Origin: Dehalococcoidia bacterium
GTDB lineage: Bacteria > Chloroflexota > Dehalococcoidia > DSTF01 > JACRBR01
DNA length: 64,000 bases
Reading direction: 5' to 3'
NCBI GenBank assembly: GCA_041494685.1
Contig: JBGQBE010000001.1
Span: forward strand, 62,001 to 126,000
How positions within the stretch are numbered: position 1 is the stretch's first letter; each line of letters starts with the position of its first letter. The translations under genes were made by a program, and so were the position numbers. Positions 5,503 through 50,010 of the stretch are shown one piece after another. Below the pieces are notes generated by a model. That model was not told the origin of the DNA. It saw nothing but the letters and a program-made list of their open reading frames with translations, and made no database searches.

Positions 5503-5946
5503 GCGTACCTCCCTGAGTTTCTGCGATGCGACCGTCAGCCGGCCGTGCCAGCGCGACTCCGTTTGTCAACTAGAGGGTTCCGGCGGCGGGAGGTCACGGA
5601 CGGGCCGCAGAACGGGCGCGGTTGATCCGTCTCTCAGTCGCAGGTTTCATGCCCGACGTCAACCGCCGGCCGCACGTCACGCGCGACGATGAACCATAGC
5701 ATGAGGGCGTTTCCCTGCGAATCTACAACGATCGAGCGTCCGTCAAGTTTTGCCCCGCGTCGGGTACCGTTTCCGGCGGGCGGACGCTGGCGAGTATGAA
5801 TATGCTAATCCACGGGGGCAATACTCTTGTGGGGCCAAACGTTCACAGGATAGGATCGGCTGCACCCCAAGGGAGAAATGGCGCGCGCATCCCGCTGCGC
5901 CGTCCGTACCGAATACCCCGCACGTCGCTGCCGAGGCGGAGAAGCC

Positions 5947-14103: not shown

Positions 14104-14805
14104 CTAGGCCGCCGTGCCGCCGCCGCGGGATCGATCGTCCCTCGCCAGCGCGCGCAACCCCGCGACCGCCATGTCGACAAGCTGCGGCGGCAACGCCCAC
14201 TCCCCCGGCGACCACCGCTCGAACGCGTGCAGCGCCGTGAAGTCGATCGAGTAGGTGTTGCGCCGCCCCTGCCGGTGGCGGACGATGATCCCGTCATGCT
14301 CCAGCTGGTTCAGAATCGCGACGACCGCGCGCTCCGTCACGCCCACGCCCACGGCCATCTCCCGCACGGTGCTGCCGCTGTCCATCGCGATGCTCAGGAG
14401 CAGGAGCGCGTGGTTCGTGAAGAATCCCCACGTCCCCATGCGCGGGTCCTGCGCGCCCGAATCCAGCGATTCCGGCGTGAGGCCGTTCGCGTCGCCTCCG
14501 TGGTAGTTGGAGATCGCCAGCAGCGTCTTGATCAGCGCGTCCACGAACTCCCGCGGCGTCAACGACGCCGTCCCCTCGCGGCGGTACGCCGCCAGCCGGT
14601 CGAAGTTCACCGCGTAGGTGTTCCGGCGCCCCTCGCGGCTCCGCTCGACGATCCCCTCTTCGCTCAGCTGCCGGAGGATCGCCAGCGTCGCGCGCTCCGT
14701 GACGCCCACGCCGGATGAGATCTCCCGCACCGTGGCGCCGTTGTGACGCACGACGTAGATGAGCACCAGTGCATGGTTGGTGAGGAAGCCCCACGTCTGC
14801 GTCAT
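14104..14805 (-). CDS. tandem winged-HTH (MarR/ArsR-like) regulator
   Basis: Two copies of TWGF(L/F)TNHAL...TVRE...VGVTERA...IL.QL...GI..R.R.GRRNTY. Confidence 0.85.
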   Translation of the reverse strand: MTQTWGFLTNHALVLIYVVRHNGATVREISSGVGVTERATLAILRQLSEEGIVERSREGRRNTYAVNFDRLAAYRREGTASLTPREFVDALIKTLLAISNYHGGDANGLTPESLDSGAQDPRMGTWGFFTNHALLLLSIAMDSGSTVREMAVGVGVTERAVVAILNQLEHDGIIVRHRQGRRNTYSIDFTALHAFERWSPGEWALPPQLVDMAVAGLRALARDDRSRGGGTAA

Positions 14806-18466: not shown

Positions 18467-18467
18467 C

Positions 18468-18881
18468 TCACCTGCTTTGATTGTCAGTTGTTTGCTCACG
18501 ATTTTCCTGTGCGGTGGGCGCGGGCGGCGGGCTTGAGGGCGGTCCAGATTCGACGGACGGCGGCGGGGCGGCCGCGGGGGCGCCGGAACGCGGTCGGGAC
18601 TGATTGTTTGGATTGACCGTGGCGCGCAGTCTATCAATGATCATCGGATGGATGAGCGGGACGACTTGGCGCATGTCGAAGCGCGAGCCGCGCGGGCCGA
18701 GGAGTCCGGCATCACGAATGGCGATCAGGATCTCGTGCAGGGCGGGCGTGTCGCCGCGCTCCTCAAGCACGCGCAGGCCCAAGGCGACTTCGCGCATGCG
18801 GCGGGAGCGATTGCCGCTGCGGAACGCGTTCAAGTTGCCGCGCGGCGCACCCGCGCCGGGCCGTCGCCCGCCTCTCGGCAT
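18468..18881 (-). CDS. small protein with terminase-small-subunit-like N-terminus
   Basis: MPRGGRRPGAGAPRGNLNAFRSG resembles the GAPxGNxNA motif; GAGG RBS. Confidence 0.55.
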   Translation of the reverse strand: MPRGGRRPGAGAPRGNLNAFRSGNRSRRMREVALGLRVLEERGDTPALHEILIAIRDAGLLGPRGSRFDMRQVVPLIHPMIIDRLRATVNPNNQSRPRSGAPAAAPPPSVESGPPSSPPPAPTAQENREQTTDNQSR

Positions 18882-18997
18882 GTCGTAGCCTCATTTCCAG
18901 TGCGGGGTGATCGCCGGGGCGAGTGTACGGCAGGGTGGGGGCGAGTTCGAAGCGGCGCGTGTCACTGCGTCTGGGGAGGACGCCGCGTCACGGGTAT

Positions 18998-19067
18998 CGT
19001 CCAAACTAGACGACTGACGGTCGGTGGAGTCGAAGAGGATCACTGACCTTCCCGTCCAGCGGCGAGC
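18998..19067 (+). repeat. conserved left-end sequence L, copy 1
   Basis: 60/70 identical to 48736-48805 by manual alignment. Confidence 0.9.
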
Positions 19068-19127
19068 AACGCGTCGTCAGTGTCGTGGCTCTTTCGGCCA
19101 CCCAGAAGAAATCGGCGCGCGAGGCAC

Positions 19128-19213
19128 TTGACATCTCCAAACTGAGAGTGATACTCTCCCTCTCAGTTACGGTAGCTGCACTCTCACTCTCTAATCTGAG
19201 AGTGGTGCTCTCA
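19128..19213 (+). promoter_or_regulatory. promoter with palindromic operator repeats
   Basis: TTGACA-16-GATACT; AACTGAGAG/CTCTCAGTT inverted repeat around the -10; TGAGAG-N5-CTCTC occurs twice. Confidence 0.65.
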
Positions 19214-19235
19214 CCATTCAAGGAGGCGTCCTGTC

Positions 19236-20477
19236 ATGACCAAGCTGACCGGTATCAGCGAAATTGTACTCACTGCTGTCGAGACCAAGAACCTCGACAC
19301 CCTCTGTTTCAGGGGGTCCGCACCGCTCGCCCATCTGGCAATCCTCTCACAAGCAGACGTGTTCGACCAGGACACGAACCCGCACGGACTCCAAAGGGAT
19401 CTGTCGGCGAAGCACGCCGCGGAGGCGTATGAGTACGCGCACCGACCCGCAGATGGATCGCATCCGCGCGCCTTTCCCGAAGTCGTTGTCAACGTGCGAG
19501 ACAAGAAGGTCATCGAGATCGAGGACGTGTCGCCGGCCGGGGACGACCAACTGCGGCAGGTGCGCGTGCATTTCTTCCTCGAGAAGATGCGCGGCCCCGA
19601 CAAGGTATTTGTGAGCCGCGTCGATGGGAACCATCGATTGTTCTACGGCGCCGGTGGCGATGACCGCGACCCCGTGTTGGCCGACGTGCCGTTCCAGATC
19701 CAGGTCGGACTCACAAGGGATCAGGAGGCCCATCTGTTCGTCGACATCAACGCGAACCAGAAGGGCCTGAACAGCTCGCACCTCGACATCCTTAAGAATC
19801 GGCTCACGCCTGCGGAGCGCGAGATCAAGGACTACCCGCAACGATGGATCGCGAAGCGGCTCACGGACGATCCCGGCTCTCCGTGGCACGGGTTGATCCA
19901 CATGGGTGGAGCGAAGAAGGGCGCCCGAGCCCAAGGGTTGTCGCGCCCGGTGAACTTCGCGAGCCTCGAATCAGGCGTGGCACGCACGTGGGCAAAGAGT
20001 CAGTACATCCACGATCTCACGCAGATCGAAGCGCAGTACGGCGTGATTCGCAACTACTGGATCGCGGTAAAGGCGGTCTTCGCGAAGGAGTGGGCCGACG
20101 CGAAGGGATACCTGCTGCTGAAGAACATCGGCGTCCTCAGTCTGTCGATCCTGGGTGGCACCGTGGTGGACCGCTGCATCCCGCGCGGGAAGGTGACGCC
20201 GGAGGAGATGGCGTACTACCTGCGGCAGGTGCAGGGCATCATCGATTGGCAGCGCGACGCCACCGGAGACGGGTCGATTAGTGGCATGTCGGGCAACCGT
20301 GCAGCACTGCTCATCGCCGCTCAGATGGCGGGACAGCTGTCCGATCCGACTGGCACGACGGTGATTAAGGACCTCGAAGATAAGTTGATTCGGGAGGCGG
20401 TCGGGACGAGGCAGAGCGATGACGAGCGCGCTATGGAGGGCGAGCTGGCAGCGGCGTCAGAATTCGTCAGGAGTTGA
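19236..20477 (+). CDS. DGQHR (DndB-like) domain protein
   Basis: GLQRDLS, FPEVVVN, RVDGNHRL, EAHLFVDINANQK; AAGGAGG RBS. Confidence 0.88.
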   Translation: MTKLTGISEIVLTAVETKNLDTLCFRGSAPLAHLAILSQADVFDQDTNPHGLQRDLSAKHAAEAYEYAHRPADGSHPRAFPEVVVNVRDKKVIEIEDVSPAGDDQLRQVRVHFFLEKMRGPDKVFVSRVDGNHRLFYGAGGDDRDPVLADVPFQIQVGLTRDQEAHLFVDINANQKGLNSSHLDILKNRLTPAEREIKDYPQRWIAKRLTDDPGSPWHGLIHMGGAKKGARAQGLSRPVNFASLESGVARTWAKSQYIHDLTQIEAQYGVIRNYWIAVKAVFAKEWADAKGYLLLKNIGVLSLSILGGTVVDRCIPRGKVTPEEMAYYLRQVQGIIDWQRDATGDGSISGMSGNRAALLIAAQMAGQLSDPTGTTVIKDLEDKLIREAVGTRQSDDERAMEGELAAASEFVRS

Positions 20478-20482
20478 GGAAC

Positions 20483-20581
20483 ATGGGCTACGAGATTGAC
20501 TTCCTGCCAGGAAAGGAATTCGGATCAGAATGGCGTGCCAACTTGCACGTCGCGAAGAAGCTATCGACGGGACTGGCTTAG
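20483..20581 (+). pseudogene. 32-aa remnant, MBL/ComEC-like N-terminus
   Basis: MGYEIDFLP after a GAGGA RBS, then diverges and stops. Confidence 0.4.
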
Positions 20582-20582
20582 C

Positions 20583-22013
20583 ATGCGGGTTTCAGAGCAC
20601 TACCGACTCAATCGCGCACAGGCGGATCTCGATTTCGTAGACGTGGACGTTACCGGCGACGTTCAGTTGTTCGTTGATCCGCGCGCTTTACACGCCTTGC
20701 CCTCCGAATGGGGAGCTTACTGCCGGAGTCTCATCCAGAACTTTTTTCATGCCGTCCTCGATGCGATCCGAACCGGGGACGATGAGCGAGCAAAGCAACT
20801 TCTTGGGCGCCTGCGCGAGCCGAACGAAACACATCTCGGGCTTTCAGCCGGAGCAGCGCGTGGACGTGCCTTGGGGCCTGACTCTGCGGAAGATGTGTGG
20901 GAGGCTCTAACGAGCAGCGAAGCCGCAAGAACCGGGATGCTGGATGACTTGGAGGATACCATCTTGTTGGTGCCCGGCATCAGTTCGGACATTGTGTCGG
21001 ACATCGCTACGAACGTGATTCGTGAGCCGTTGATTCGATACACAGCGGCGGTCGCAGAATACTTCGGAATACCACTGGAGAACGACGTTGACTCCGGTCC
21101 GCTCTGGAACCCTGTCAAACGGGTGTGGGAATCCGGATACGTGAAACTCCCCGTCACGCCACACGGCAAGCTGTTACTGATTCCGAAGAGCCTAGTGCGG
21201 AGAAAGATGGACTACGACCTTAAGGAGTACTATCGGGACTACATGATCGAGCACCTGCGGCATGTTGAGGAATCGGCGAATTCGGAGCTCGTACACCTCC
21301 TTCGCGACGGGAGGCGGCGCGTGTACGTCACGGAGCTCGAAGAGAAGTACGGGACAGGAAAACACGCCGTCGTGCGACTTAGCCGAGAATATCCGGATGT
21401 CCTTGATCGATACCGCGCGGACAAGAAGCGACGCACCTCACCTCCGTTATCCAACGACGAAATCGCGCCGTGGGTTGGCGCACCAGAGCCTGACTGGGAC
21501 GCGCTATTGGCGGACGTAACGCGCACGCGCAGAGGAAAGGACGCTGCAGACGACTACCACAGAGCGGTGGAACGAATGCTCACAGCTCTGTTCTATCCAC
21601 ACCTCACGGGCCCAGAGATTGAGTTCCCCATCCATGACGGACGCAAGCGAATCGATATTCGGTACACAAATGCCGCGACATCGGGCTTCTTCGACTGGCT
21701 CGGCTCTCGCTATCCTGCCCCATACGTCTTTGTGGAGTGCAAGAACTACACGGGGGATCCGGCGAATCCGGAACTCGACCAATTGGCCGGGCGCTTTTCG
21801 CCAAGACGGGGTCGGTTCGGGCTCCTAGTATGTCGGACCTTTAAGGACAAGGCGCGTTTCGTTGATCGCTGCAAGGACACGGCGCGTGATGATCGTGGGT
21901 TTATCATCGCCCTCGATGACGCGGACCTCGTTGCTCTTGTCGCCGACTATCGTGCTAGGGGCGCTCTGGCTTACGACGTGCTGCAAGCGCGCTTCGACGA
22001 ACTCATAAACTAG
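20583..22013 (+). CDS. hypothetical protein with C-terminal PD-(D/E)XK restriction-endonuclease-like domain
   Basis: DVQLFVDP N-terminus; GRKRID...FVECKNY...ELDQLAGRF; atypical codon usage. Confidence 0.75.
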   Translation: MRVSEHYRLNRAQADLDFVDVDVTGDVQLFVDPRALHALPSEWGAYCRSLIQNFFHAVLDAIRTGDDERAKQLLGRLREPNETHLGLSAGAARGRALGPDSAEDVWEALTSSEAARTGMLDDLEDTILLVPGISSDIVSDIATNVIREPLIRYTAAVAEYFGIPLENDVDSGPLWNPVKRVWESGYVKLPVTPHGKLLLIPKSLVRRKMDYDLKEYYRDYMIEHLRHVEESANSELVHLLRDGRRRVYVTELEEKYGTGKHAVVRLSREYPDVLDRYRADKKRRTSPPLSNDEIAPWVGAPEPDWDALLADVTRTRRGKDAADDYHRAVERMLTALFYPHLTGPEIEFPIHDGRKRIDIRYTNAATSGFFDWLGSRYPAPYVFVECKNYTGDPANPELDQLAGRFSPRRGRFGLLVCRTFKDKARFVDRCKDTARDDRGFIIALDDADLVALVADYRARGALAYDVLQARFDELIN

Positions 22014-22052
22014 ATCGGAGAACGTGTCGCGCGGCATGCAGCGAGCAGGCGT

Positions 22053-22137
22053 CAGGTGCTATTCGAAAATCGCGCGAACCGCAGGTAACTTGTGATTCTA
22101 GCTTCGGATCGCAGATACGCGAGCAGAGCATGAGCGC
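22053..22137 (+). repeat. conserved right-end sequence R, copy 1
   Basis: 22053-22118 matches 49831-49897 with 5 mismatches and 1 indel; weaker similarity continues ~19 nt. Confidence 0.9.
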
Positions 22138-22237
22138 CGGAGTGGCCCAGTCTCCAGTCCCCCGGCCTCTGAACTCCAACGTGCCCCACGGAGGCGCTTT
22201 ACTTCTTCCAGCGGGGTGATCTACGCTCAATCCACGT

Positions 22238-23428
22238 ATGTCACGCCTGATCTATCTCGACCACGCCGCCACGACGCCGCTGCACCCGAGCGCGCTCGAC
22301 GCGATGCTGCCGTTCCTCAGCGGCTCCTACGGCAACCCCTCGGCCACGTACGGGCTGGCGAAGCAGGCCGGCGACGCGGTGCAGCGCGCCCGCCGCAGCG
22401 TCGCCGCGGCGCTGGGCGCCCGGCCGACGGAGATCGTCTTCACGAGCGGCGGCACCGAGTCGATCAACACCGCCATCAAGGGCGTCGCGTTCCAGCAGAA
22501 GAAGGCGCGCGCCGGCAACCACATCGTCACCACGGCGATCGAGCACCACGCCGTGCTGCACGCCTGCCAGTACCTGGAGCGGTTCGGCTTCGAGGTCACC
22601 TACCTGCCGGTGGACCGCCACGGGCTCGTCGAGCCGCGACACGTCGCCGACGCGATCGGCGAGCGCACGGTGCTCGTCAGCGTGATGGCGGCGAACAACG
22701 AGGTCGGCACGATCGAGCCGATCGCGGAGATCGCCGCGGCCGTGCGCGAGCGCGCCGCCGCGCTGCACAAGCGCATCCCGCTGCACACGGACGCGGTGCA
22801 GGCACCGAACGCCATCGCCCTCGCCGAGATCGCGCGCGAGGTGGACGTGCTGAGCCTGGCGGCGCACAAGTTCCGCGGGCCGAAGGGCATGGGCGTGCTG
22901 TACATGCGCAGGGGCGTGCCGTTCCTCGCACAGCAGAACGGCGGCGGCCAGGAGCGCCAGCGCCGCGCCGGCACCGAGAACGTCGCCGGCATCGTCGGCA
23001 CGGCGGAGGCGCTGCGCATCACGCAGGGCGGACTCGCGGCCGACCGCGAGCGCATCGGCGGGCTGGCGGCGCGGCTGCGCGATGGCATCCTGCGCGCGAT
23101 CCCGGGCACCGCCCTCAACGGGCACCCGGAGCGCCGCCTGCCGAACAACGTCAGCATCAGCTTCGACGGCGCCGACGCGCGCGACCTCGTCGCGGCGCTG
23201 GACGCGGCCGGCATCGCGTGCAGCGCGGGCGCGGCATGCGGCGCGACCAACGTCGAGCCGTCGCACGTGCTGCTGGCGCTCGGCGTCCCGCTCGACCGCG
23301 CGATCGCGACGCTGCGCCTGACCGTGGGGCACGAGACGGCCGAGGCGGACATCGACGCCGTGCTGGCCGCGCTGCTGGGCATCGTCGAGCGCTCGCGCGC
23401 CGACCGCGCGCTCGCCGAGAGCGCCTGA
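22238..23428 (+). CDS. iscS: cysteine desulfurase (IscS/NifS family)
   Basis: YLDHAATTP, FTSGGTES, EHHAV, NNEVG, HTDAVQA, AHKFRGPKG, SAGAAC. Confidence 0.92.
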   Translation: MSRLIYLDHAATTPLHPSALDAMLPFLSGSYGNPSATYGLAKQAGDAVQRARRSVAAALGARPTEIVFTSGGTESINTAIKGVAFQQKKARAGNHIVTTAIEHHAVLHACQYLERFGFEVTYLPVDRHGLVEPRHVADAIGERTVLVSVMAANNEVGTIEPIAEIAAAVRERAAALHKRIPLHTDAVQAPNAIALAEIAREVDVLSLAAHKFRGPKGMGVLYMRRGVPFLAQQNGGGQERQRRAGTENVAGIVGTAEALRITQGGLAADRERIGGLAARLRDGILRAIPGTALNGHPERRLPNNVSISFDGADARDLVAALDAAGIACSAGAACGATNVEPSHVLLALGVPLDRAIATLRLTVGHETAEADIDAVLAALLGIVERSRADRALAESA

Positions 23429-40324: not shown

Positions 40325-40460
40325 GACAAACCTCCGATACCAGGCGACAACGCAGAGACCAGCGGAGTTTACTTCGCCGTCGATGAACTGTCGAGGAAAT
40401 GGAGCAAGAGCCTGGCCACGTGCGTGGCCGCAAGCGTCTGCCGAATCCAGGGGAGTGATA

Positions 40461-40503
40461 TGGTCGGGGCGATAGGACTTGAACCTGCGACCTCCTGACC
40501 CCC
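40461..40503 (-). repeat. tRNA-Pro 3'-half duplicate (att-like)
   Basis: Matches 48557-48599 with 2 mismatches and ends in the anticodon loop. Confidence 0.9.
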
Positions 40504-40559
40504 GCTGCTGCGAAGCGCTGATCGGGCGATCAGCCCCCGATCGTGCCGGCCGGCCGGAC

Positions 40560-41594
40560 TCAGCGGAGGGAGAACGAGAGGACGCCCGCGTAACGGTCCG
40601 TCACCAGGAGCGAGCCGTCCGCGATGGACAGCCCGGCCGGCGCCGTGAACAGCGAGCCGGAGTTCAGGTCCCGCATATCGCGCCTGCCGATCAGCCCGAG
40701 GTACCTGCCGTCGGGCGCGAACACTTCCACGGCGACCAGCAGCCCGTCGCTCACGAAGACGCGCCCTGCCGCATCGACCGCGACGCCTTTCGGGCGCGCC
40801 AGCGATCCCGCCGTGTCGCCGCGCCGCCCGAACTCGCGCAGGAACGCGCCGCCCGGCGACAGCTCCACGACGCGCGCGTTGAGCGTGTCGACGACGTACA
40901 CGTTGCCGGCGGCGTCCACGGCGAGGGCGCCGGGGACGTTGAAGCCTTCGGCGCCGCCCGCACGCGTGCCGGTCCCGGCCGTCCAGAGGACGTCGCCGCC
41001 TTCGGTGAACCGCAGCACCTGGTGGTTCTCGGCGTCGGAGACCACGACGCCTCCGTCCGGCAGCACCGCCACGCCGACGGGGCGCGCCGGCTTGCCGTTG
41101 ACGCCCGCCGGCAAGAGGAGGGCCCGCTGCACCTCCCCCGAGAGATCCATGACGACGATGCTCGGGTCCAGCGAGTTGGCGATGAACAGTCGCTGGCCGT
41201 CCGTCGCGATCGCCATGGGCAGCTGGAGGCTCACGCGCGCGCTGAGTTGGCCGCCGAAGGTCGCGATGACGCGGCCGGCGGAGTCGAGCTTGAGGACGCG
41301 GTTGTTCCCCGTGTCCAGCACGAACGTGGCGTCGCCGACCCGGACGGCGTCCACCGGGATCGTCCAGCTTCCGCCCGCCGGCGCGGCGATCGAGCGGGCG
41401 AGCGGCGCCGGGTACACCAGGCGGGAGACCCGGACGCCCGAGGCCGCGCCGCCGATCGGGATGATCGCCGGGAGGATGAGCCACGTCGCCGCGGAGAACA
41501 GCAGCCCGACGGCGGCCAGCGCCAGCAGCTTCTTGTGAAGCTCAACCGGCAACAGGTGTTCCGCGCCCCAGAGGCCGTACGAACCGCGCTGCAA
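40560..41594 (-). CDS. membrane-anchored NHL-repeat protein
   Basis: P.G.AVD..GNVYVVDT.N.RV repeats; N-terminal TM. Confidence 0.85.
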   Translation of the reverse strand: MQRGSYGLWGAEHLLPVELHKKLLALAAVGLLFSAATWLILPAIIPIGGAASGVRVSRLVYPAPLARSIAAPAGGSWTIPVDAVRVGDATFVLDTGNNRVLKLDSAGRVIATFGGQLSARVSLQLPMAIATDGQRLFIANSLDPSIVVMDLSGEVQRALLLPAGVNGKPARPVGVAVLPDGGVVVSDAENHQVLRFTEGGDVLWTAGTGTRAGGAEGFNVPGALAVDAAGNVYVVDTLNARVVELSPGGAFLREFGRRGDTAGSLARPKGVAVDAAGRVFVSDGLLVAVEVFAPDGRYLGLIGRRDMRDLNSGSLFTAPAGLSIADGSLLVTDRYAGVLSFSLR

Positions 41595-41616
41595 AGGACC
41601 ACCTCGTTCCTTTTCC

Positions 41617-42291
41617 CTATTTCTTGTGGCAGTTCTGGCACAACGTCACGGTCGGCATCGTGTTGAACTGCGTCCCCGGCGTGCCGCCGTGCGTGGCGTG
41701 ACAGCTCAGGCACTTCACGTAGTCGCCCGGCCCCGTCCCGTCCGCGTTCCAGAGGCGCGTGCCGGAGTAATCGCCGTGGTACGGGTCCCACGAGCTGTCG
41801 ACAGGGGCGATGCCAAGCTCACGGGCGTTGACGTCGACGGGGTGGTTGACGGGCCCCGCCTTCGTGTGGCAGTTGCGGCAGAAGTCGGCGCCACCCGGCA
41901 ACTTCAGGAACTTGGCGTAGGGCGTGCCGTGGGCGTCGTGGCAGCGGTCGCAGTCCGCCCCTTTGACGCCGGGACTTCGCAGGTGCAGCGGCCGCGAGAG
42001 GTCGAACGCGAAGGTCCCGACCGTGGTGACGGTGCCGTCGTGGCAGCTGAAGCACAGCGGCCGCAGACCGGCGAACGGTCCGCTCGTGTTCGGTTTGGAG
42101 GCCCAGAGCGCGTCCGCGCCGGCGTCGTGCGGCACGTGGCAATTGACGCAGACGGACGTGCCGGGGATCGACACGCCGTGCTTGGTACCGGTCACGTCCT
42201 TCTCGTCGCCGAAGGCCACGCGCCCCCGCGCCGCGAGGACGACCCCCATCGCCACCAGGACGCACACTGCCACGGCTACCAGGTGCTTCAT
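41617..42291 (-). CDS. multiheme cytochrome c (6 CxxCH)
   Basis: CVNCH, CFSCH, CDRCH, CRNCH, CLSCH, CQNCH; signal peptide. Confidence 0.92.
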   Translation of the reverse strand: MKHLVAVAVCVLVAMGVVLAARGRVAFGDEKDVTGTKHGVSIPGTSVCVNCHVPHDAGADALWASKPNTSGPFAGLRPLCFSCHDGTVTTVGTFAFDLSRPLHLRSPGVKGADCDRCHDAHGTPYAKFLKLPGGADFCRNCHTKAGPVNHPVDVNARELGIAPVDSSWDPYHGDYSGTRLWNADGTGPGDYVKCLSCHATHGGTPGTQFNTMPTVTLCQNCHKK

Positions 42292-42361
42292 GAGCCCCGC
42301 GGCCGGTGGCCGGCGCCAGCCCCTCGCGCCGGGCGGGAACCCGGACCCCGGCTTCGCTCCG

Positions 42362-44005
42362 TCACGGCGCCCCCAACTGGAACACGAACATCCCCATCAG
42401 GCGATCCATCACGTACAGACGGTCGCCGACGATCTCGACGCCGTAGGGGTACTGAAGCCCGGACTCGGGCAGCCCGTTGCCCGCGGCGTCGGGTCCGCCG
42501 ATCGACCCGAGAAACGCCCCGGCGGCCCCGAATACGCGCACCTCGCGGAGCGCTTCGTCGCTCACGAAGACGCGCCCTTGCTCATCGATGGCGACGTCCT
42601 GCGGCATGGCCAGATCGTCACGCCCGATCGCCGACACAAACGTGCCCTGCGGCGAGTACTCCTTCACCTCGTGGGTCCCCGTATCCACAACCCACAGGTT
42701 GCCGTGGCCGTCGAGCGCGATGCCGCTCGGCGTCGCCAGGCGTTCGCTGCTCGACGTGACCGCGTGCTGGCCGATGGCGGCGAGGAACACGCCGCTCGCG
42801 CTCAACAGCACGACGCGCTGGTTGCTGGAATCGCTGAGCCAGATCGCCCCCGAGTCGGTCACGGCGATGCCGGCGGGGTGGAACGGTCGCGCCGCCTTGG
42901 GCGCCTGCACCGGGATCACCTTATCGACGAGCCCGGCCGGCGACAGCTCGATCACGTTTCCGAAGAGTGGCGCGGCGACGTAGATCTCGCCCCCGTGCGT
43001 CGTCATCGACAGGGCACGCAAGATCGATGTCGGGCCACCGGGATCGCTCTCGAACGTCCGGGCAAGTTTCCCGTCCGCGGTGACCGTCAGGACGCGCCCC
43101 TTGTTCGTATCCAGGACGAACACGCGGCCGTCCACGACCGCCAGATCCGCCGGCAGGTCCGGCGAATCGGGCATGATGTGGCCTTCTTGATCGGTAGTGA
43201 ATGCGGGGATCGTCTGCACGAGCCGGGCCGCGAATGGGCCGTCGGCGGGCTGCGCGTCGCCGCCGTCGAATGAGCCTACCGGAGCCACGAGGCTCGCCTC
43301 GCTGCCGCGCGCGCGCGGGAGCAAGAGTCCGACGAACAGCGCAACGGCCGTGAGCGCGATCAGCGCCGCCAGCATGGGGCTCAGCGAGGCCGGTCGCAGG
43401 GACGGCTGCCCCGTCCGAGCGGTCGTTGCGGGCGCCGTCGCCGGCTCGGCGGCCGAGATCCCCAAGACGGTCCGGAGCACGACAAGGCCGAGAATGCCCC
43501 ACACCGCCAGGACGGCAAGGCCCGCTCCGAGCGGAGCGAACTGGCGCGGCGTCGCCAGTCCGAACTTCGCGTTCTCGTGCAAGTGCGGAGGTGCGACCGA
43601 GTTGAAGCGGAAGGTCGTCTGGGCCGGCGTGTATTCGCTGCCGCCGCCGTAGCGGACCACGACTGTGTGCTCGCCGCCCCACGTGGGCTCGTACGGCAAA
43701 GCCGCGGTACCCGTCGCGTCGGTCATGGCGCTGCCGAGCGTCATCAGCCGTTCGCCAAAGACCGTCGAGATCTCGGAGAAGACCACGGGCTCGCCGCGCG
43801 AAGGCGTGCCGTCCTCCGCTGAAAGCTTCGCTGAGAGGGTCATGGTGGAGCGACCCTCGACCTGGTCCGTCAGCGTCACGCCCCGCAGCACCGTCGGAAC
43901 CGGCCCGCCGGCCGGGCCCTCGGCCCTGGCCGCGCCGCTCATCGACCATGCCAGCGCGAGAGCGCCGAGCGCCGCCAGGATCGCGCCGCGCTTCGTGATC
44001 TGCAT
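42362..44005 (-). CDS. Ig-like domain, two TM helices and NHL-repeat protein
   Basis: Signal peptide; HTVVVRYGG (Ig-like); PSGIALDGHGNLWVVD repeats. Confidence 0.8.
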   Translation of the reverse strand: MQITKRGAILAALGALALAWSMSGAARAEGPAGGPVPTVLRGVTLTDQVEGRSTMTLSAKLSAEDGTPSRGEPVVFSEISTVFGERLMTLGSAMTDATGTAALPYEPTWGGEHTVVVRYGGGSEYTPAQTTFRFNSVAPPHLHENAKFGLATPRQFAPLGAGLAVLAVWGILGLVVLRTVLGISAAEPATAPATTARTGQPSLRPASLSPMLAALIALTAVALFVGLLLPRARGSEASLVAPVGSFDGGDAQPADGPFAARLVQTIPAFTTDQEGHIMPDSPDLPADLAVVDGRVFVLDTNKGRVLTVTADGKLARTFESDPGGPTSILRALSMTTHGGEIYVAAPLFGNVIELSPAGLVDKVIPVQAPKAARPFHPAGIAVTDSGAIWLSDSSNQRVVLLSASGVFLAAIGQHAVTSSSERLATPSGIALDGHGNLWVVDTGTHEVKEYSPQGTFVSAIGRDDLAMPQDVAIDEQGRVFVSDEALREVRVFGAAGAFLGSIGGPDAAGNGLPESGLQYPYGVEIVGDRLYVMDRLMGMFVFQLGAP

Positions 44006-44007
44006 CG

Positions 44008-45342
44008 CTACCTCACCGAGCCGATGGCTGCGTCTTCGCGACGGCTCGCTTCCATTGCCGCGATTTCCTCGATCTCATAGATCGAGATGATGGGGAACAG
44101 CCGGAAGAAGAGCATCATCAGCAGCGGAATAGCCGCCGCGGCGCCAACCGTGATCGCGACCTCGACGCGGCTGGGCCAGTAGACGACGACCGCGGTCGGC
44201 ATCAGCGGCTGCGCCAGTCCCGGCACCACGATGAGGAACCGCTTGAGCCACATCGCCAGCACCACCGCGAGCGCCGCCAGGGTGATGCCGGGGATGTTCC
44301 GCGTCCACGGCAGCGCGACCAGCAATATCGGCACGATGATCCCGCCGATCCCGAAGAACCACATCAGCGGCGCAAGGCGACCCACCAGGAGCAGCTCCAG
44401 GATCGACCCCGGGCCCTGGTGCATCTTGTAGCCCTCCGTGAGGTACTCGGCGAACATGAAGTACCCGTAGGCGGCGCCGAGCGCCATCATGATGAACGCC
44501 AGATACTTGAAGTGCTTCTCCTCGATGTACTCCTCGAGGTGGTACGCCCAGCGGAACCCCGCCGTCACCAGGATGACGGTGGCGACACCGGAGAACATCG
44601 CCGCCACGACGAAGTACGGCGCGAGGATCGTGCTGTCCCAGGCGGGACGCGATGTGACGCCGAAGAGGAACGCCAGCACGGAGTGCACCGCCACCGCCAG
44701 CGGGATAATCACGATCGCCACAACCGTCGTGCCCCACTCGAGCACGTGCTTCTGCGCCGGCGTGCCGTGCCAGCCCAGCGCGAGGTGTTTGTACAGCAGT
44801 TCGCGCGCCCGCCCCGCGGTCGGCCCCAGCCGGTCGCGGCAGGCGGCGATGTCCGGGATCAGTGGCAGGTAGAGGAAGACGGCGCCGGCCGTCAGGTACG
44901 TGGTCACGGCGACCACGTCCCAGAGCACCGGCGAGCCGACCTGGCCGTACCGGAAGAGGTAGATCATCCGCTCGGGGCGTCCCATGTCGATCAGCGGGAA
45001 CACCGCGCCGACCAGCACCGACATCACCGCCATCGTCTCCGCGATGCGCGAAAGCGGCGCCCGCCAGGGGGCGTTCGTGAGACGCAGGATGGCCGACGTC
45101 ATCGCACCGCCGTAGCTGATGCCGATGAAGAAGACCATGTCCCCGATGTAGAACCCCCAGGACACGCGCTGGCTCAGCCCCGTGACCCCTAGTCCCTCTT
45201 TGAGCTGCTGCAGGTACGCCACGAGCGCCATGAACACCAGGATCGACAGGCTGGCGACGGCCACCCAGAAGAACTGCCCCGGCCGGATGATCGGCCGCAT
45301 GGCGGTTTCTTCGAGGTCAGCCTGTTGCATGTGTTCCAACAC
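44008..45342 (-). CDS. NrfD/PsrC-family membrane quinol-interacting subunit
   Basis: GLGVTGL, WGFYI..VFFIGIS, R.AE, DMGRPER, SPVLWD, VHS, APYFV; exact start uncertain. Confidence 0.92.
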   Translation of the reverse strand: MLEHMQQADLEETAMRPIIRPGQFFWVAVASLSILVFMALVAYLQQLKEGLGVTGLSQRVSWGFYIGDMVFFIGISYGGAMTSAILRLTNAPWRAPLSRIAETMAVMSVLVGAVFPLIDMGRPERMIYLFRYGQVGSPVLWDVVAVTTYLTAGAVFLYLPLIPDIAACRDRLGPTAGRARELLYKHLALGWHGTPAQKHVLEWGTTVVAIVIIPLAVAVHSVLAFLFGVTSRPAWDSTILAPYFVVAAMFSGVATVILVTAGFRWAYHLEEYIEEKHFKYLAFIMMALGAAYGYFMFAEYLTEGYKMHQGPGSILELLLVGRLAPLMWFFGIGGIIVPILLVALPWTRNIPGITLAALAVVLAMWLKRFLIVVPGLAQPLMPTAVVVYWPSRVEVAITVGAAAAIPLLMMLFFRLFPIISIYEIEEIAAMEASRREDAAIGSVR

Positions 45343-45348
45343 CGTACG

Positions 45349-46152
45349 CTAACTCCAGTGCTCGCCCTCGATCGTCTGTCCGTGGCCCGCGATGTACCAC
45401 ACGCGCGGGCTCGTGTTCAGCTCTTCCTTCAGGCGGAATCCGTCGTTCTCGCTCAAGTAGCGGGACATCTCGTACGTCTCGCCGGACCGGTTCGTCATCA
45501 CCCGAGTATTGAGATCGGCGATGTAGAGCGCGTCCATCGGACACGCGGCGACGCACGCCGGCAGCTTGCCTTCATCGACGTAGTGGACGCAGAGGACGCA
45601 CTTCCCCACGGTCCCGCGTCTCTGCGGCACCGGGAACTCGGGCATCGGGTTGTTGAAGTTCTTCGGCGGTTGCGGCGGCTGGCGGAAGTTGAAGTACCGC
45701 GCCTCATACGGGCACGCCGCCATGCAGAGGCGGCAGCCGATGCAGCGGTCTTGATTCACCAGCACGACGCCTTCAGCGCTCTTGAACGTCGCCCCGACCG
45801 GGCACACCTTCAGGCAGGGAGCGTTCTCGCACTGCATGCAGAGGCGGGGCATGAAGAAGCGGTTGCCGTTGGCGTCTTCCACTTCGTAGATCTTGATCCA
45901 CTCCATCTCCTTGGGCAGGTAGTGGGTGGCCTGGCAGGCCTGCGTGCAGTACTTGCAGCCGTCGCACCGCCGGAGATCGACGACGGCCGCCCACTGATGC
46001 TGTTCCTTCGGCGCGGCATCCGGCGCGGGCGGCGCCGCCACAGCCGGCTGCCCATCGACCTGGCGCAGCGCGGACCAGGCCACCTCGCCCGTGAGCACGA
46101 AGGCCGTCGCGGCTCCCAGGGTCTGGAGCAGTTCCCTCCTGGAGATGGGCAT
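45349..46152 (-). CDS. Tat-exported 4Fe-4S protein (NrfC/PsrB-like)
   Basis: SRRELL Tat motif; CDGCKYC, CMQCENAPC..VCP, CIGCRLCMAACPY, KCVLC...PAC...CP. Confidence 0.93.
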   Translation of the reverse strand: MPISRRELLQTLGAATAFVLTGEVAWSALRQVDGQPAVAAPPAPDAAPKEQHQWAAVVDLRRCDGCKYCTQACQATHYLPKEMEWIKIYEVEDANGNRFFMPRLCMQCENAPCLKVCPVGATFKSAEGVVLVNQDRCIGCRLCMAACPYEARYFNFRQPPQPPKNFNNPMPEFPVPQRRGTVGKCVLCVHYVDEGKLPACVAACPMDALYIADLNTRVMTNRSGETYEMSRYLSENDGFRLKEELNTSPRVWYIAGHGQTIEGEHWS

Positions 46153-46360
46153 CGACAGGCTCCATTCATGCCGGCGAACTGGCGGTCGCTCTCGACAGAA
46201 CAATTGTGCCCCGGTCGATGCCGTTTGGCATGCGTGGTACCGCTTCAGCGCACACGGGCAGATCTACCTGCGTCAACCTCGAAGGTCTATGCCCACAGAT
46301 ACATGACCCCGTGCCACCGGCGAGCGCCTAATGGGTGTAAATACGCGCTTGGAGGTTGCC

Positions 46361-47059
46361 GTGGCCGAGGCGTCGATCCTGGGAACCAGCGCGCCGATGC
46401 GCGTCGTCATCGCTGACGACCACACCCTCATCCGCGAGGGGACCAGCCGGATCCTCGAGACCCAGCCGGACATCGCCGTCGTCGGCGAGGCGGGCGACGG
46501 CGCCAGCGCTGTCGAGACGGCGCTGCGTCTCCAGCCGGACGTCGCCCTGCTCGACCTCCGCATGCCCGTCCTGAACGGCATCGAAGCGACGCAGCGCATC
46601 CGCGCGCAGGCTCCGAACATCGCCGTGCTCATCCTCACCGCCTACGACGACGACGAGTACGTCTCGGCGGTCATCAAGGCCGGCGCCTCGGGCTATCTCC
46701 TCAAGACCGTCCGCGCCAACGAGCTCATCGAGGCCCTCCGCCGCGTCCGCATGGGAGAAGTCGTGCTGCATCCCGCGATCGCCAGCAAACTGGCGCGGCT
46801 CTTCGCGAAGAACCTCGGCACCGTGCCGGAAGAGCACCGGCTGACATCGCGCGAGATGGACATCCTGCGGCAGGTGTGCATGGGGAACCTCAACAAGGAG
46901 ATCGCCGGCGAGCTGGGGCTCAGCATCCGCACTGTCGAGGGCCACCTGAACGCCATCCTGGGCAAGCTCAACGTGCGGTCGCGCACGGAAGCGGCGATGT
47001 ACGCGTCCTATAAGGGCTGGTTCAGCGAGGGCGGCTTGTCGCCATGGGCACACACGTAG
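46361..47059 (+). CDS. NarL/LuxR-family response regulator
   Basis: IADDH, LLDLRMP, GYLLK, LTSRE...NKEIA.EL..S.RTV. Confidence 0.95.
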   Translation: MAEASILGTSAPMRVVIADDHTLIREGTSRILETQPDIAVVGEAGDGASAVETALRLQPDVALLDLRMPVLNGIEATQRIRAQAPNIAVLILTAYDDDEYVSAVIKAGASGYLLKTVRANELIEALRRVRMGEVVLHPAIASKLARLFAKNLGTVPEEHRLTSREMDILRQVCMGNLNKEIAGELGLSIRTVEGHLNAILGKLNVRSRTEAAMYASYKGWFSEGGLSPWAHT

Positions 47060-48510
47060 GGCTCGCCGCGCGGCGGCCGTTGCTCGCCGGCGCCGATCGC
47101 TGGCCGCGCCTCGATGCGCTGCGCGCCGCGGCGAGGCTGCCGCTCAGGGATCGCCGGTTCTGGATCACGCAGGCCATGATCCTGGGCATCATCGGCCTCC
47201 ATGAGTCGATCGAGCTGTTCGGGTTCGTGCCCAGCCTCGGCATGCTGTACTTCGTGCCGACCGCGCTCTTCTTCATGCCCGTGGTCTACGCCGCCATCAA
47301 CTTCGGCCTGCGCGGGTCGCTCGCCACCGTGCTCTGGTGCACGCTGATCACGCTTCCCAACTGGGTATTCTGGCACGAGGGCTTCGAACGGTACGCCGAG
47401 ATCGCGCAGATGGGCTTCGTCGCGGCCTTCGCACTGATGGTCGGCCTCCGCGTCGATGAGGAGCGCAAGGCATATGCGCGCGTCGAGATGGTCTCCCACG
47501 CGCTCGAACGCTCCGAGCAGCGATACCGCGAGCTGTTCGAGGCCGCCCGCGAGGGTATTCTCGTGCTCGACGAAGCGGGCCGGATCGTCGAGTGCAACTC
47601 CGCCGCGCGCGCGCTGATGCAGGCCTCGCCCGCGGCGGCGGACCACGGCCGCCTCCACGACGTCTTCCCACGGGAAGCGGCGGCGCAGATCATGGCGCAG
47701 GTGTCGAATCCGGACGAGCGCCCCGGGGCGATCCGGCTGCGCACGCCCGCCGGAGACGAGGCGTGGGTCGAACCCGTGTGCACCCGTCTGCGCGGCGATG
47801 CCCCCGGCACCCAGGTCTTGCTGCGCGACGTGACGCGGCAGCAGCGCCGCCAGGAGAACCTCGAGACGTACACCGCCCAGGTGCACAGGGCGCAGGAGGA
47901 CGAGCGGCGCAGGATCGCGCAGGAGATCCACGACGACACCGTGCAGTCGCTCGTCCTCCTGTGTCGCGAGTTGGACGACGTGGAGGAGCGCTGCGGCGAG
48001 ACGCCGGACCGCGTCGCATCCAGCCTCCGCAGCGCGCGGGACCATGCGGCAGAGATCGTGGGGACGCTGCGCGTGCTGATCCGGGGCATCCGTCCGCCCG
48101 CGCTCGATGATCTGGGGCTCGTCCCCGCCGTGCAGCGGCTGCTGACCGACGTCGCGTCGCACTCGACGGTCCGCACGGATCTGGTCGTGGCGGGCGCGGT
48201 GCATCGCGCGCCCCGCGCGGTCGAGCTGGCAATGCTCCGCATCGTGCAGGAGTCGCTGCGCAACGCGGAGCGTCACGGCGCGCCGGCGCGCATCGACGTC
48301 CACATCACGTACGCGCACGGACACGTCGAGCTGGAAGTCCGGGACGACGGTGCGGGGTTCGTCCCACCGCAGGATCCCTCCGACCTCGCGAGGGGGGGGA
48401 AGTGGGGGATCATCGGCATGCACGAGCGCGCGCGGGAGGTAGGCGGCGAGCTGCGCGTCTCCTCGACGCCCGGCGCCGGGACGACGGTGCAGGCAGCCTT
48501 CGGCATCTAG
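47044..48510 (+). CDS. PAS-containing HisKA_3 sensor histidine kinase
   Basis: TM region, [35 protein letters not shown]. Confidence 0.93.
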
Positions 48511-48556
48511 TCCGCGCGGCGGTGACCCAGCCGCAGGCGTCCGCAGCGGGGGTGAA

Positions 48557-48633
48557 TGGTCGGGGCGACAGGATTTGAACCTGCGACCTCCTGACCCCCA
48601 GTCAGGTGCGCTACCGGGCTGCGCTACGCCCCG
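48557..48633 (-). tRNA. tRNA-Pro (anticodon GGG)
   Basis: CGGGGCGTAGCGCAGCCCGGTAGCGCA-CCTGA CTGGGGG TCAGG-AGGTCGCAGGTTCAAATCCTGTCGCCCCGACCA. Confidence 0.96.
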
Positions 48634-48735
48634 AACGGGACGATCGTAGCACGGCAAGCAGGGCGCGCCAAAGGCGGCGGGAGTCTGCGCGACCGCGGAG
48701 CGATTCTGGATACCCGCTTGATGCGCGGGTGCTGG

Positions 48736-48805
48736 CGTCGAATCTGGACGACCGAAGGTCGGTGGAGTCGAAGATGATCACTAACCTTCCTGCCGAGCGG
48801 CGAGC
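48736..48805 (+). repeat. conserved left-end sequence L, copy 2
   Basis: 60/70 identical to 18998-19067. Confidence 0.9.
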
Positions 48806-48811
48806 GATTTC

Positions 48812-49693
48812 TCAGTCAACAACTGGACGCTGCTCGAGTGGGCGCATCACGACGTCGAGCGCCGGCCACGGTGGACCCTCGCGCAGGGCGCGGAGAAGCT
48901 CTCGCCCTGCTCGCTGCCCATTCGGGAATTGGTCGCCTCGATCCCACCGCCAGGCTGCGACCATCGCAAGCACGAGGCCACGGCACTCGGCGAGCAGTTC
49001 TTGGTCAGCGCCCGCATAGCGCTCGCTGACCTCTTCGGGCACATGGGCGAGGTCGAATTCGACAGGCCCCCGGCAGCACGTCTCGAGGTCGATGAACAGC
49101 AGCCCGCTCTTCGTGTCGAGCAGGTTGCCCGGGTGCGGCTCGCCGTGCAGCAGTTGCTCGGCGGCGCCGCGGTCGCAGATCGTTTGTCTCAGGCTTCCTA
49201 ACGTGTCGCTGAGAAGCTCCCGGTCCGCGTCGGCGAGCGCCGGAGTGAGGTCGCGGCTCGCAACGAGTTGTTGAGCCTCCGCGACTCGATCCGTGAAGTG
49301 TGGCGTCGTGAAATCGAGCTGCCGCATGCCGGCATGCAGCCGCTCGAGCGCATTCGCGTAGTCGGCTGGTGAGACCTCCCCAGTTGCTACAGGTTCGTAG
49401 TAGGTCCACAGCGTGACCACGAAGCCGTCACGGTCGTAGACCCGCGGCTCCACTCGAGGCTCAAGAGCACCCGCGGGGCTCCCGGTTTCGGCGAGGCGTT
49501 GCGCCAGCTCGACTTCGAACTGTGCGACCTCCTGCCCTACATACGCGACGCGGGCAAGCACGTCGCAGGGGAGCAGCCGCAACGCGAGCTTGTTCGAGTT
49601 GCAAAGAACGATTGCGTTCGTCGACTCCAGGCCAAGCGCTGAGCCAATCGATATGGTCGCAGCCACGGCGCGCGAAACGTCTGATGCCTGCAT
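48812..49693 (-). CDS. aminoglycoside-phosphotransferase-like (APH/kinase fold) protein
   Basis: LLHGEPHPGNLL, LFIDLE, GPVEFDLA. Confidence 0.85.
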   Translation of the reverse strand: MQASDVSRAVAATISIGSALGLESTNAIVLCNSNKLALRLLPCDVLARVAYVGQEVAQFEVELAQRLAETGSPAGALEPRVEPRVYDRDGFVVTLWTYYEPVATGEVSPADYANALERLHAGMRQLDFTTPHFTDRVAEAQQLVASRDLTPALADADRELLSDTLGSLRQTICDRGAAEQLLHGEPHPGNLLDTKSGLLFIDLETCCRGPVEFDLAHVPEEVSERYAGADQELLAECRGLVLAMVAAWRWDRGDQFPNGQRAGRELLRALREGPPWPALDVVMRPLEQRPVVD

Positions 49694-49830
49694 CTTTCGC
49701 TTACCCCTCGCCGCGTTGCGCCAGGAGATCTCGATGGCGCGTGCAACCTGCGCACGATACCGAACGGTTCAATCGAGAACCGCCGGATCAATAAGGTGAG
49801 ACTGGGGGTTGTCTAACGGTCGATGTGAGA

Positions 49831-49916
49831 CAGGTGTTATTCGAAAATCGCGCGAACAGTAGATAACTTCGTGATTTTAGCTTCGGATCGCAGATACAAC
49901 TGCACAGCGTTAGCGC
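49831..49916 (+). repeat. conserved right-end sequence R, copy 2
   Basis: Matches 22053-22137. Confidence 0.9.
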
Positions 49917-49924
49917 AGCGTTAG

Positions 49925-50010
49925 CCCCCAGTCAGGTGCGCTACCGGGCTGCGCTACGCCCCGAACGGGACGAATCGTAGCACGGCCGTCGTACCGCGCC
50001 AAACGCGGCG
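49925..50010 (-). repeat. tRNA-Pro 5'-half plus promoter duplicate
   Basis: 49925-49986 matches 48595-48655 with one indel; CGCGCCAAA.GCGGCG also shared further out. Confidence 0.9.

Follow-up and report, generated by a model that had tools for sequence, protein, structure and literature searches.

A tRNA-Pro(GGG) gene of a Dehalococcoidia bacterium with two probable insertions in its anticodon loop, one of them by a cassette family that targets the tRNA 5′ part

The window analysed here, a stretch of 64,000 nucleotides (nt) from a Dehalococcoidia bacterium (contig JBGQBE010000001.1, positions 62,001–126,000), belongs to a metagenome-assembled genome (MAG) of 87 contigs and 97.6% completeness, denoted G000. 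It contains a tRNA-Pro(GGG) gene that lies between an orphan copy of its own 3′ half and an orphan copy of its own 5′ half. This arrangement probably results from two independent site-specific insertions, both in the anticodon loop of the same gene. The segment 48595–49924 has the make-up of a 1.33 kb integrase-less cassette, comprising an arm, an APH-family gene, a right arm, a promoter-like stretch and a tRNA 5′ half. It belongs to a family of small integrative elements of Dehalococcoidia-type Chloroflexota that insert with reversed polarity and are found at the same junction in related genomes and in metagenomes; some of them encode a tyrosine integrase. On the opposite side of the gene, a block of 8.05 kb with respiratory and two-component genes is read as the probable remains of a separate insertion of classical polarity.

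The tRNA-Pro(GGG) gene and its two half copies

ARAGORN called a tRNA-Pro(ggg) gene at 48557–48633 on the reverse strand, and the Rfam tRNA model scored 66.7 bits at the same place. Three direct repeats found by the repeat finder define the half copies. Repeat D4 (40460–40503 against 48556–48599, 44 nt, 95% identity) corresponds to the tRNA 3′ half, and repeat D2 (48595–48643 against 49925–49973, 49 nt, 100% identity) to tRNA positions 1–39 with 10 nt of leader. Past a 1-nt indel, repeat D5 (48643–48679 against 49974–50010, 37 nt, 78% identity) continues into a weaker similarity of promoter-like sequence. Repeats of 43–49 nt are far above chance expectation. Both fragments break in the GGGGG of the anticodon loop, and the 5′ half is followed, after GGGGG, by CTA. 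An earlier sequence-only reading of this region, which had described the complete gene, the 3′-half copy at 40461–40503, the 5′-half copy with its upstream sequence at 49925–50010 and the shared stop in GGGGG, is borne out. The features concerned, in order around the gene, are as follows.

40461–40503, reverse strand: orphan tRNA-Pro(GGG) 3′ half, tRNA positions 35–77, 41/43 identical (2 mismatches; repeat finder)
40504–48556, no strand assigned: 8.05 kb block between the tRNA gene and the 3′-half copy, with no recombinase (Pfam)
48557–48633, reverse strand: functional tRNA-Pro(GGG) (ARAGORN and Rfam)
48634–48703, reverse strand: promoter-like stretch plus the leader that the live tRNA now uses, cassette-supplied, with TTGGCG at 48666–48671 and TACGAT at 48643–48648 (read by eye)
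48704–48807, reverse strand: right arm conserved among the mini-cassettes, containing a hairpin at 48754–48789 (comparison with relatives G004, G005 and G010)
48812–49693, reverse strand: cargo gene for a 293-residue protein of the APH (phosphotransferase/kinase) fold, co-directional with the orphan tRNA promoter (Pfam PF01636, E = 8.8e-12)
49815–49924, reverse strand: conserved element arm (P′ arm) of approximately 110 nt, directly after GGGGG, CTAACGCTGCGCTAACGCTG..GTATCTGCGATCCGAAGCTAAAATC..GAAGTTATCT..GTTCGCGCGATTTTCGAA (alignments with relatives)
49925–49973, reverse strand: orphan tRNA-Pro(GGG) 5′ half (positions 1–39 at 49925–49963) with 10 nt of leader, the left junction of the cassette (attL side), 49/49 identical to 48595–48643
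49974–50002, reverse strand: promoter-like stretch of the orphaned (host) tRNA unit, with TTGGCG at 49997–50002, a spacing of 17 nt and TACGAT at 49974–49979 (read by eye)

The proposed course of the 5′-side event is that the attachment site of the incoming element would consist of a promoter, tRNA positions 1–39 and the conserved arm. Recombination near the end of the anticodon loop would join the element’s promoter and 5′ half to the resident 3′ half, giving a working tRNA gene, and would strand the host promoter and 5′ half at the far end of the insertion (49925–50010), where they now point into the APH-family gene. The 5′ half of the live tRNA is accordingly cassette-supplied, and its 3′ half comes from the host or from the 8.05 kb block. 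The 3′-half copy would be the far junction of the separate insertion bounding that block. The exact crossover point and the order of the two events are ones that we infer.

The cassette of the window

The 1.3 kb between the tRNA gene and the 5′ copy has a GC content of 0.60–0.66, compared with 0.69–0.74 in the flanks. Its P′ arm is 88–90% identical to those of relatives G005, G018 and G004, and 94.5% identical over 127 nt to that of the metagenomic unit L052. The 293-residue protein is 83% identical to its counterpart in G005, and NCBIfam models gave only weak matches to it, far under their cut-offs. From the orphan 5′ half through the arm and the APH gene to 71 nt past the stop codon, the cassette body aligns with the G005 unit over 1250 nt at 85.6% identity; the flanks and the promoter region are not common to the two. 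The right arm is 82.7% identical to that of the G004 cassette, whose cargo differs (HNH and DndB-like genes), the right arms of G004 and G005 are 91% alike over 70 nt, and part of the same arm matches an internal stretch of an integrase-bearing element in G010. Both junctions and both conserved arms are thus kept in the window (left arm 88–94%, right arm 83–91% relative to other cassettes), with no recombinase between them.

No sign of an RNA function of the arm or of the orphan half emerged. Folding energies did not exceed those of shuffled sequences (z = −1.3, the value for the right arm, and −0.9), and Rfam returned the tRNA family only. The start of the P′ arm (49905–49924, reverse strand), CTAACGCTGCGCTAACGC, which some copies hold two or three times over, repeats tRNA positions 5–16, GCGTAGCGCAGC (49948–49959, reverse strand), imperfectly and in inverted orientation, and pairs with them in the predicted fold. 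This inverted repeat could be a recombinase binding repeat.

Recurrence and spread of the junction

The signature of the junction, the tRNA 5′ half (positions 1–39) followed by CTA and the arm, was searched for in genome, metagenome and viral collections with an 18-nt junction word. A second locus in G000, on contig C67 (8071–10934), has an orphan 5′ half, approximately 2 kb of intervening sequence and then a tRNA-Pro(GGG) gene, and its arm after GGGGG is homologous to that of the window. The tRNA-Pro(GGG) on C67 is itself degenerate, with a length of 76 nt, a mismatch in the anticodon stem and an altered 3′ end, and is followed by a piece of a DUF1801 cassette. Junction and arm are also present in relatives G005, G004, G014, G010 and G018. 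At E ≤ 1e-3 the arm was found in 8 of 36 genomes and 7 of 19 genera of the family, a tally that includes G042, which gave no match. A sample of 301 genomes across the class yielded it in 4, every one a member of this family. G000 holds four copies of the arm, the fourth on contig C75 (600–665).

Among genome-collection stretches containing the junction word, eight of nine were true junctions and the ninth was a chance match; the eight are titled as Dehalococcoidia, Chloroflexota and Chloroflexia MAGs, with one ‘Binatia’ MAG. Metagenome stretches gave 16 true junctions and 6 chance matches (22 in all), with L058 and L059 overlapping on one contig. The same architecture is present in a complete chromosome, OY969567.1.

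Identities within and outside the cassettes differ. A metagenome contig that otherwise matches G000 at 68–77% contains a 345-nt piece of the window’s cassette at 94.8% identity, and the DUF1801 cassette is 97.5% identical between C67 and the metagenomic unit L054, the flanks of which are at 66–74%. Because the cassettes are so much more alike (94.8% and 97.5%) than the sequence elsewhere (66–77%), these comparisons show that cassettes spread between distant hosts, and they are indirect evidence for a possible mobilisation by related autonomous elements.

Complete elements in relatives

Units running from an orphan 5′ half to the next tRNA gene number 17: those of the window and of C67, those of L019, L020, L021, L022, L052, L054, L055, L056, L064, L068 and L074, and two each in L051 and L058, where the units stand in tandem. 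The window and the 16 other units share direct repeats that correspond to the 5′ part of the target tRNA. Beside the attachment site, the window’s copy has no integrase; an intact tyrosine integrase (313–336 amino acids) is present in 4 of the 17 units, in L021, L022, L051 and L052, which measure 4.4–6.6 kb. In these four the integrase gene starts 38–108 nt upstream of the full tRNA gene and diverges from it, and all four also encode a rolling-circle replication protein (Rep; Pfam REP_ORF2-G2P/RepSA or Rep_trans). Their integrases are 85–87% identical to one another at the amino acid level. They score as Xer-like, below every equivalog cut-off, and reach 49.6 bits against an integron-integrase model with a cut-off of 265; in the phage and plasmid collections the nearest relatives reach 39.6% and 31.5% identity. 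The unit in L074 retains a truncated integrase, comprising the first 97 residues only. The remaining 12 units, including that of the window, have no integrase and measure 0.6–2.9 kb.

At the other loci examined, within the flanks covered, no 3′ orphan lies downstream of the full tRNA gene. Since none follows it there, insertion appears to rebuild the tRNA by itself, with the element contributing positions 1–39 and the upstream region. The unit in L054 carries different, mutually compensated versions of the D stem in its orphan and in its full gene, as would be expected if one of the two 5′ halves is foreign.

Integrase-less cassettes

Cargo supported by Pfam is co-oriented with the orphan tRNA promoter in 9 of 9 integrase-less units in which it was found. 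It comprises the APH-family gene (window and G005, the same cassette), HNH and DndB-like genes, a glyoxalase, a DUF1801 protein, an FAD monooxygenase, an ANT(2″)-like protein, a 760-residue protein, and an EcoRI-type methylase with GmrSD/HNH; the three remaining minis have no Pfam-supported cargo. In the complete elements the first Pfam-supported gene after the arm points the opposite way, in both of the two that have one. An origin of the minis as simple internal deletions of complete elements was rejected, as the promoter on their tRNA side differs from the integrase-proximal arm and the direction of their cargo is the reverse of that seen in these two complete elements. The cargo direction, the host-type promoter and the Rep fragments that abut 5′ halves in L058 together argue that the minis form a class of their own. 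They may perhaps have arisen by faulty excision that retained the attL junction, a route with which the L058 fragments agree.

With neither integrase nor Rep in the window’s cassette, and no integrase of the element type in G000, that cassette is judged to be non-autonomous or dead. It would be either fixed in place or movable only by an integrase acting in trans, as for cis-mobilizable elements (CIMEs).

Promoter-like stretches and transcription

The motif pair TTGGCG–17 nt–TACGAT is common to all four tRNA-Pro(GGG) units of G000. Pairwise matches among promoters of this type amount to 36–38 of 45 positions, which is too close for a host copy to be told from an element copy. The stretch at 48634–48703 is not homologous between the window and G005, though the cassette body is. 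A consensus terminator scan found none. The promoter-like TTGGCG upstream of the 5′ half, described in the sequence-only reading, is present and of the same type at every unit of the genome, but a strict consensus scan does not call it. Transcription of the orphan 5′ half is plausible, since cassette cargo and orphan promoter consistently point the same way; that the promoter would also express the cargo is something we infer.

The 3′ half and the 8.05 kb block

A direct repeat of the tRNA 3′ part lies at the far end of the 8.05 kb block (40461–40503). The genes of the block, assigned by Pfam, are as follows.

40560–41594, reverse strand: NHL-repeat protein
41617–42291, reverse strand: multihaem cytochrome c
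42362–44005, reverse strand: NHL/Big protein
44008–45342, reverse strand: NrfD
45349–46203, reverse strand: 4Fe-4S protein
46331–47059, forward strand: LuxR-type response regulator
47044–48510, forward strand: PAS histidine kinase

Pfam found no integrase in the block, and it offers no room for an integrase pseudogene. Among 30 relatives the block is collinear only in G002, at 75–77% nucleotide identity, where there are no tRNA halves and the flanks are different. The arm of the 3′ half (..GCAGCAGC before GGGGG) and the downstream flank of the tRNA are without any arm motif of the cassette family. In the whole window the family’s two arm motifs occur only at 49859–49886 and in a relic at 22094, besides one unrelated place with one mismatch (12509). 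Extra 3′ halves are few in the family (in a tally that again includes G042). One is in G045 (L075, contig C3), where a tRNA-Pro(GGG) gene is followed by 12.3 kb of ordinary genes without an integrase and then by a 3′ orphan that begins at position 36. The arms of this G045 block (approximately 14660–14690 and 2540–2560) carry CCGAAGCTA(C/A)A-like motifs resembling the arm of the reverse-polarity family, and because of this resemblance one integrase family may serve both polarities.

The two half copies in the window are not equally preserved. Of the two changes in the 3′ copy, one disrupts base pairing in the T stem (C50:A64), and with an A opposite C50 the copy appears to be decaying. As the 3′ repeat is 41/43 identical and the 5′ repeat 49/49, the 3′-side insertion is probably the older; the same difference could also have come about by gene conversion between the closer repeats.

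The 5′ scar might instead be as described while the 3′ copy is a stray relic, either a decayed duplicate of tRNA-Pro or the trace of an element since lost or replaced, with the 8.05 kb block being ordinary chromosome. The host-like GC content of the block, its lack of mobility genes and arm motifs and the T-stem mismatch of the copy would all suit this account, as would other stray tRNA-Pro pieces in G000. One of these, at C1:26760–26799, spans the anticodon stem to the T arm and lies between dehydrogenase and aldo-keto-reductase genes, with only ordinary genes beside it by Pfam. Another, at C59:14070–14114, is a 5′ half that is also broken after GGGGG and continues into a different sequence; the contigs of both pieces have no recombinase gene. 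The copy in the window, however, is in direct orientation and starts exactly in the anticodon loop, as do those in G045 (position 36) and G024 (position 34), and the block is collinear in only one of the 30 relatives, in another context there. A stray relic is on this evidence unlikely, and a separate classical-polarity insertion is the reading retained for the 3′ side.

One element or two

The sequence-only reading had offered either two integrations of opposite polarity or one element of 9.4 kb that split the host tRNA and brought a replacement. The first of these is supported, with a reverse-polarity family on one side and, on the other, a 3′ scar that has unrelated arms and is more diverged. 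A single element (40504–49924), integrated through a very short GGGGG core and carrying a complete tRNA-Pro(GGG), would explain why the two orphans end in one and the same GGGGG, so that joining them would restore a tRNA, and why the internal tRNA has its own promoter-like stretch. There is a precedent, at least in the parts of the source consulted, in phages that share only approximately 10 bp with attB and encode a replacement tRNA (PMC10865867), and the nearest phage integrases to that of the family include those of mycobacteriophages of approximately 72–75 kb (30% identity). Yet the 9.4 kb contains no integrase, and the core would be GGGGG only. In the 16 other units the 5′ half and arm lead to a full tRNA or to another 5′ half within 0.6–6.6 kb, with no 3′ orphan in the flanks covered. 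The two parts also occur separately: G005 has the APH cassette but not the 8 kb block, and G002 has the block but no tRNA halves. The flanks are not syntenic in other genera. The sequence left of GGGGG at 40504 (..GCAGCAGC) is unlike the tRNA core side used by the family, and divergence differs between the two repeats. One element of 9.4 kb is therefore very unlikely.

That the duplications are artefacts of metagenome binning and assembly, with repeats collapsed or mis-joined at tRNA sequences, is scarcely credible: the genome is indeed an 87-contig MAG, and de Bruijn contigs of the sequencing runs break inside the tRNA repeats, with none of those examined spanning the whole 9.9 kb, but the 40503/40504 junction is crossed by contigs of two runs, the probable source run and an independent one, the junction type at 49925 occurs in more than 20 other assemblies, the complete chromosome OY969567.1 among them, and one contig (L060) shares an HD-GYP gene (84% amino acid identity) approximately 2 kb away. 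Contigs of four runs gave one further joint, 48639>49904 (one contig, side 30), which falls within the 49-nt repeat and is read as an effect of the alignment. In three runs the APH region had a higher summed depth, which may come from other organisms and was not used as evidence.

Several observations weigh against two insertions by mobile elements, or against parts of that account. Pfam found no recombinase in the window’s 9.5 kb (33 open reading frames of 36.3–53.8 kb), whole-genome scans with PF00589 and PF07508 found none on contig C1 (208 kb) or on C67, and G000 has no element-type integrase, its best match being only 31% identical. Nothing indicates that the window’s cassette is still able to move. 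Neither an excised (attP-form) nor an empty-site sequence was found among the 9 genome, 22 metagenome and 0 viral matches to the junction word or in the run contigs, an absence that cannot be demonstrated in this way. Neighbouring host genes of G005 and G000 are 73–85% identical at the nucleotide level, so the pair formed by the window and G005 could, taken alone, reflect vertical inheritance. The tRNA-side promoter-like stretch of the minis is of the host-lineage type, unlike the integrase-proximal arm of complete elements, and a strict sigma-70 consensus scan called no promoter at either tRNA copy, the promoter-like stretches falling below threshold. The 8.05 kb block has a GC content like that of its flanks, no mobility gene and no recognizable arms, and a label of island for it would draw only on the flanking direct repeat and the patchy occurrence.

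Comparison with known systems

Integration into the 5′ part of a tRNA gene, or reverse polarity, was reportedly described by Zhao and Williams in 2002 (J Bacteriol 184:859) for an element of Mesorhizobium loti. The elements of the present family resemble such reverse-polarity elements (Mesorhizobium loti and the pTN3-like plasmids of Thermococcales) in the direct repeat of the 5′ part, in the restoration of an intact tRNA beside the integrase gene, in the need of the restored tRNA for transcription from element DNA, and in having small plasmid-like carriers. They differ in their bacterial Chloroflexota host and in an Xer-like integrase of 313–336 amino acids that integration leaves unsplit, as opposed to the ‘suicidal’ pTN3 type. 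They also differ in that most copies are integrase-less cassettes of one or two genes, some in tandem, with a host-type tRNA promoter. In the portions of the literature consulted, insertion at the 5′ part is stated to be far less common than at the 3′ part (PMC6563490), and the account of the pTN3-like plasmids has the integrase promoter expressing the rebuilt tRNA and calls the polarity ‘seldomly encountered in bacteria’ (PMC8371274).

CIMEs are described, in the part of the source consulted, as elements that have lost their integration and transfer genes and kept attL and attR (PMC6323972). The window’s cassette is similar in keeping junctions and arms without a recombinase, in having complete relatives in the same family of organisms and in occurring as tandem units elsewhere (L051 and L058). 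CIMEs derive from integrative and conjugative elements and are borne by conjugation, whereas the complete relatives here are elements of approximately 5 kb with a rolling-circle Rep and an integrase. The minis, moreover, differ from the complete elements in cargo direction and promoter and so are no plain deletion derivatives.

In the tRNA-dependent lysogeny of actinobacteriophages, as far as the account was consulted, a core of approximately 10 bp is used, the host tRNA is destroyed and a phage tRNA is needed (Guerrero-Bustamante & Hatfull 2024, PMC10865867). Common to both systems are a tyrosine integrase that targets a tRNA gene and a second tRNA of the same isotype between two tRNA fragments. 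The present family differs in rebuilding the tRNA from a 39-nt identity block (plus leader), and the window region differs in having no integrase.

A functional likeness, not membership, links the minis to integron cassettes. Integron gene cassettes are promoterless units of one or two genes without a recombinase that enter one site in the direction of a resident promoter and sometimes form arrays. The minis are like them in all of these respects and in cargo of resistance-like and defence-like kinds. They are unlike them in lacking an IntI-type integrase, attC and attI, in using a tRNA gene as their site, and in that a new promoter and 5′ half arrive with each unit.

Other remnants and mobile sequences

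A third copy of the arm lies in the window at 22040–22150 on the reverse strand (85% identity over 85 nt), preceded by what is left of the tRNA core in degenerate form (..GACTGGG). It adjoins a low-GC stretch of 4 kb (18400–22400; GC content 0.58–0.62, compared with 0.72–0.76 around it), whose open reading frames (16.4–24.3 kb of the window) gave no Pfam match. No tRNA gene lies nearby, and the region probably represents a further insertion of this family that has decayed.

In L019 (G005:C1), a 635-codon frame for a large serine recombinase (5393–7300) runs antisense through the entire tRNA-Pro(GGG) gene, and G005 and G007 (L028, G007:C116), which belong to two genera, have almost the same sequence over the first 60 nt past the tRNA on its downstream side. 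The 3′ side of the tRNA may also be a target of serine-recombinase elements. A repeat of approximately 1 kb, with four copies on G000 contigs C8, C25, C26 and C38, contains a short Xer-like recombinase (frames of 302–325 amino acids); a copy in G005 is 78–80% identical at the nucleotide level, and the repeat is likely to be an insertion-sequence-like element.

Implications

Integration into the 5′ part of tRNA genes is regarded as rare, with very few cases from bacteria. In an uncultured lineage of soil and sediment an entire element family inserts in this way as a rule, and in the material examined the non-autonomous cassettes outnumber the complete elements (12 of 17 units). For annotation, the family accounts for tRNA ‘halves’ that tRNA finders pass over and flags small accessory islets that integrase-based island finders miss.

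A tentative reading is that tRNA-Pro(GGG) serves in this Chloroflexota family as an integron-like capture site, into which integrase-less cassettes (arm, one or two genes, tRNA promoter and tRNA 5′ half) would be inserted by Xer-like integrases that small rolling-circle plasmids provide in trans. Every insertion would renew the promoter and 5′ half of the tRNA, the old promoter expressing the new cargo and tandem arrays accumulating. On this possible but doubtful footing, the captured cargo would be kinase/APH-like, ANT(2″)-like, glyoxalase, FAD monooxygenase, restriction–modification and HNH genes. The integrase-less blocks on the 3′ side (the window and G045) might mirror this, with host flank captured by faulty excision. 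If orphan promoters do drive the cargo, the family would represent a second, independent route to an integron-like capture-and-express platform, and would furnish tRNA 5′ halves that come with promoters.

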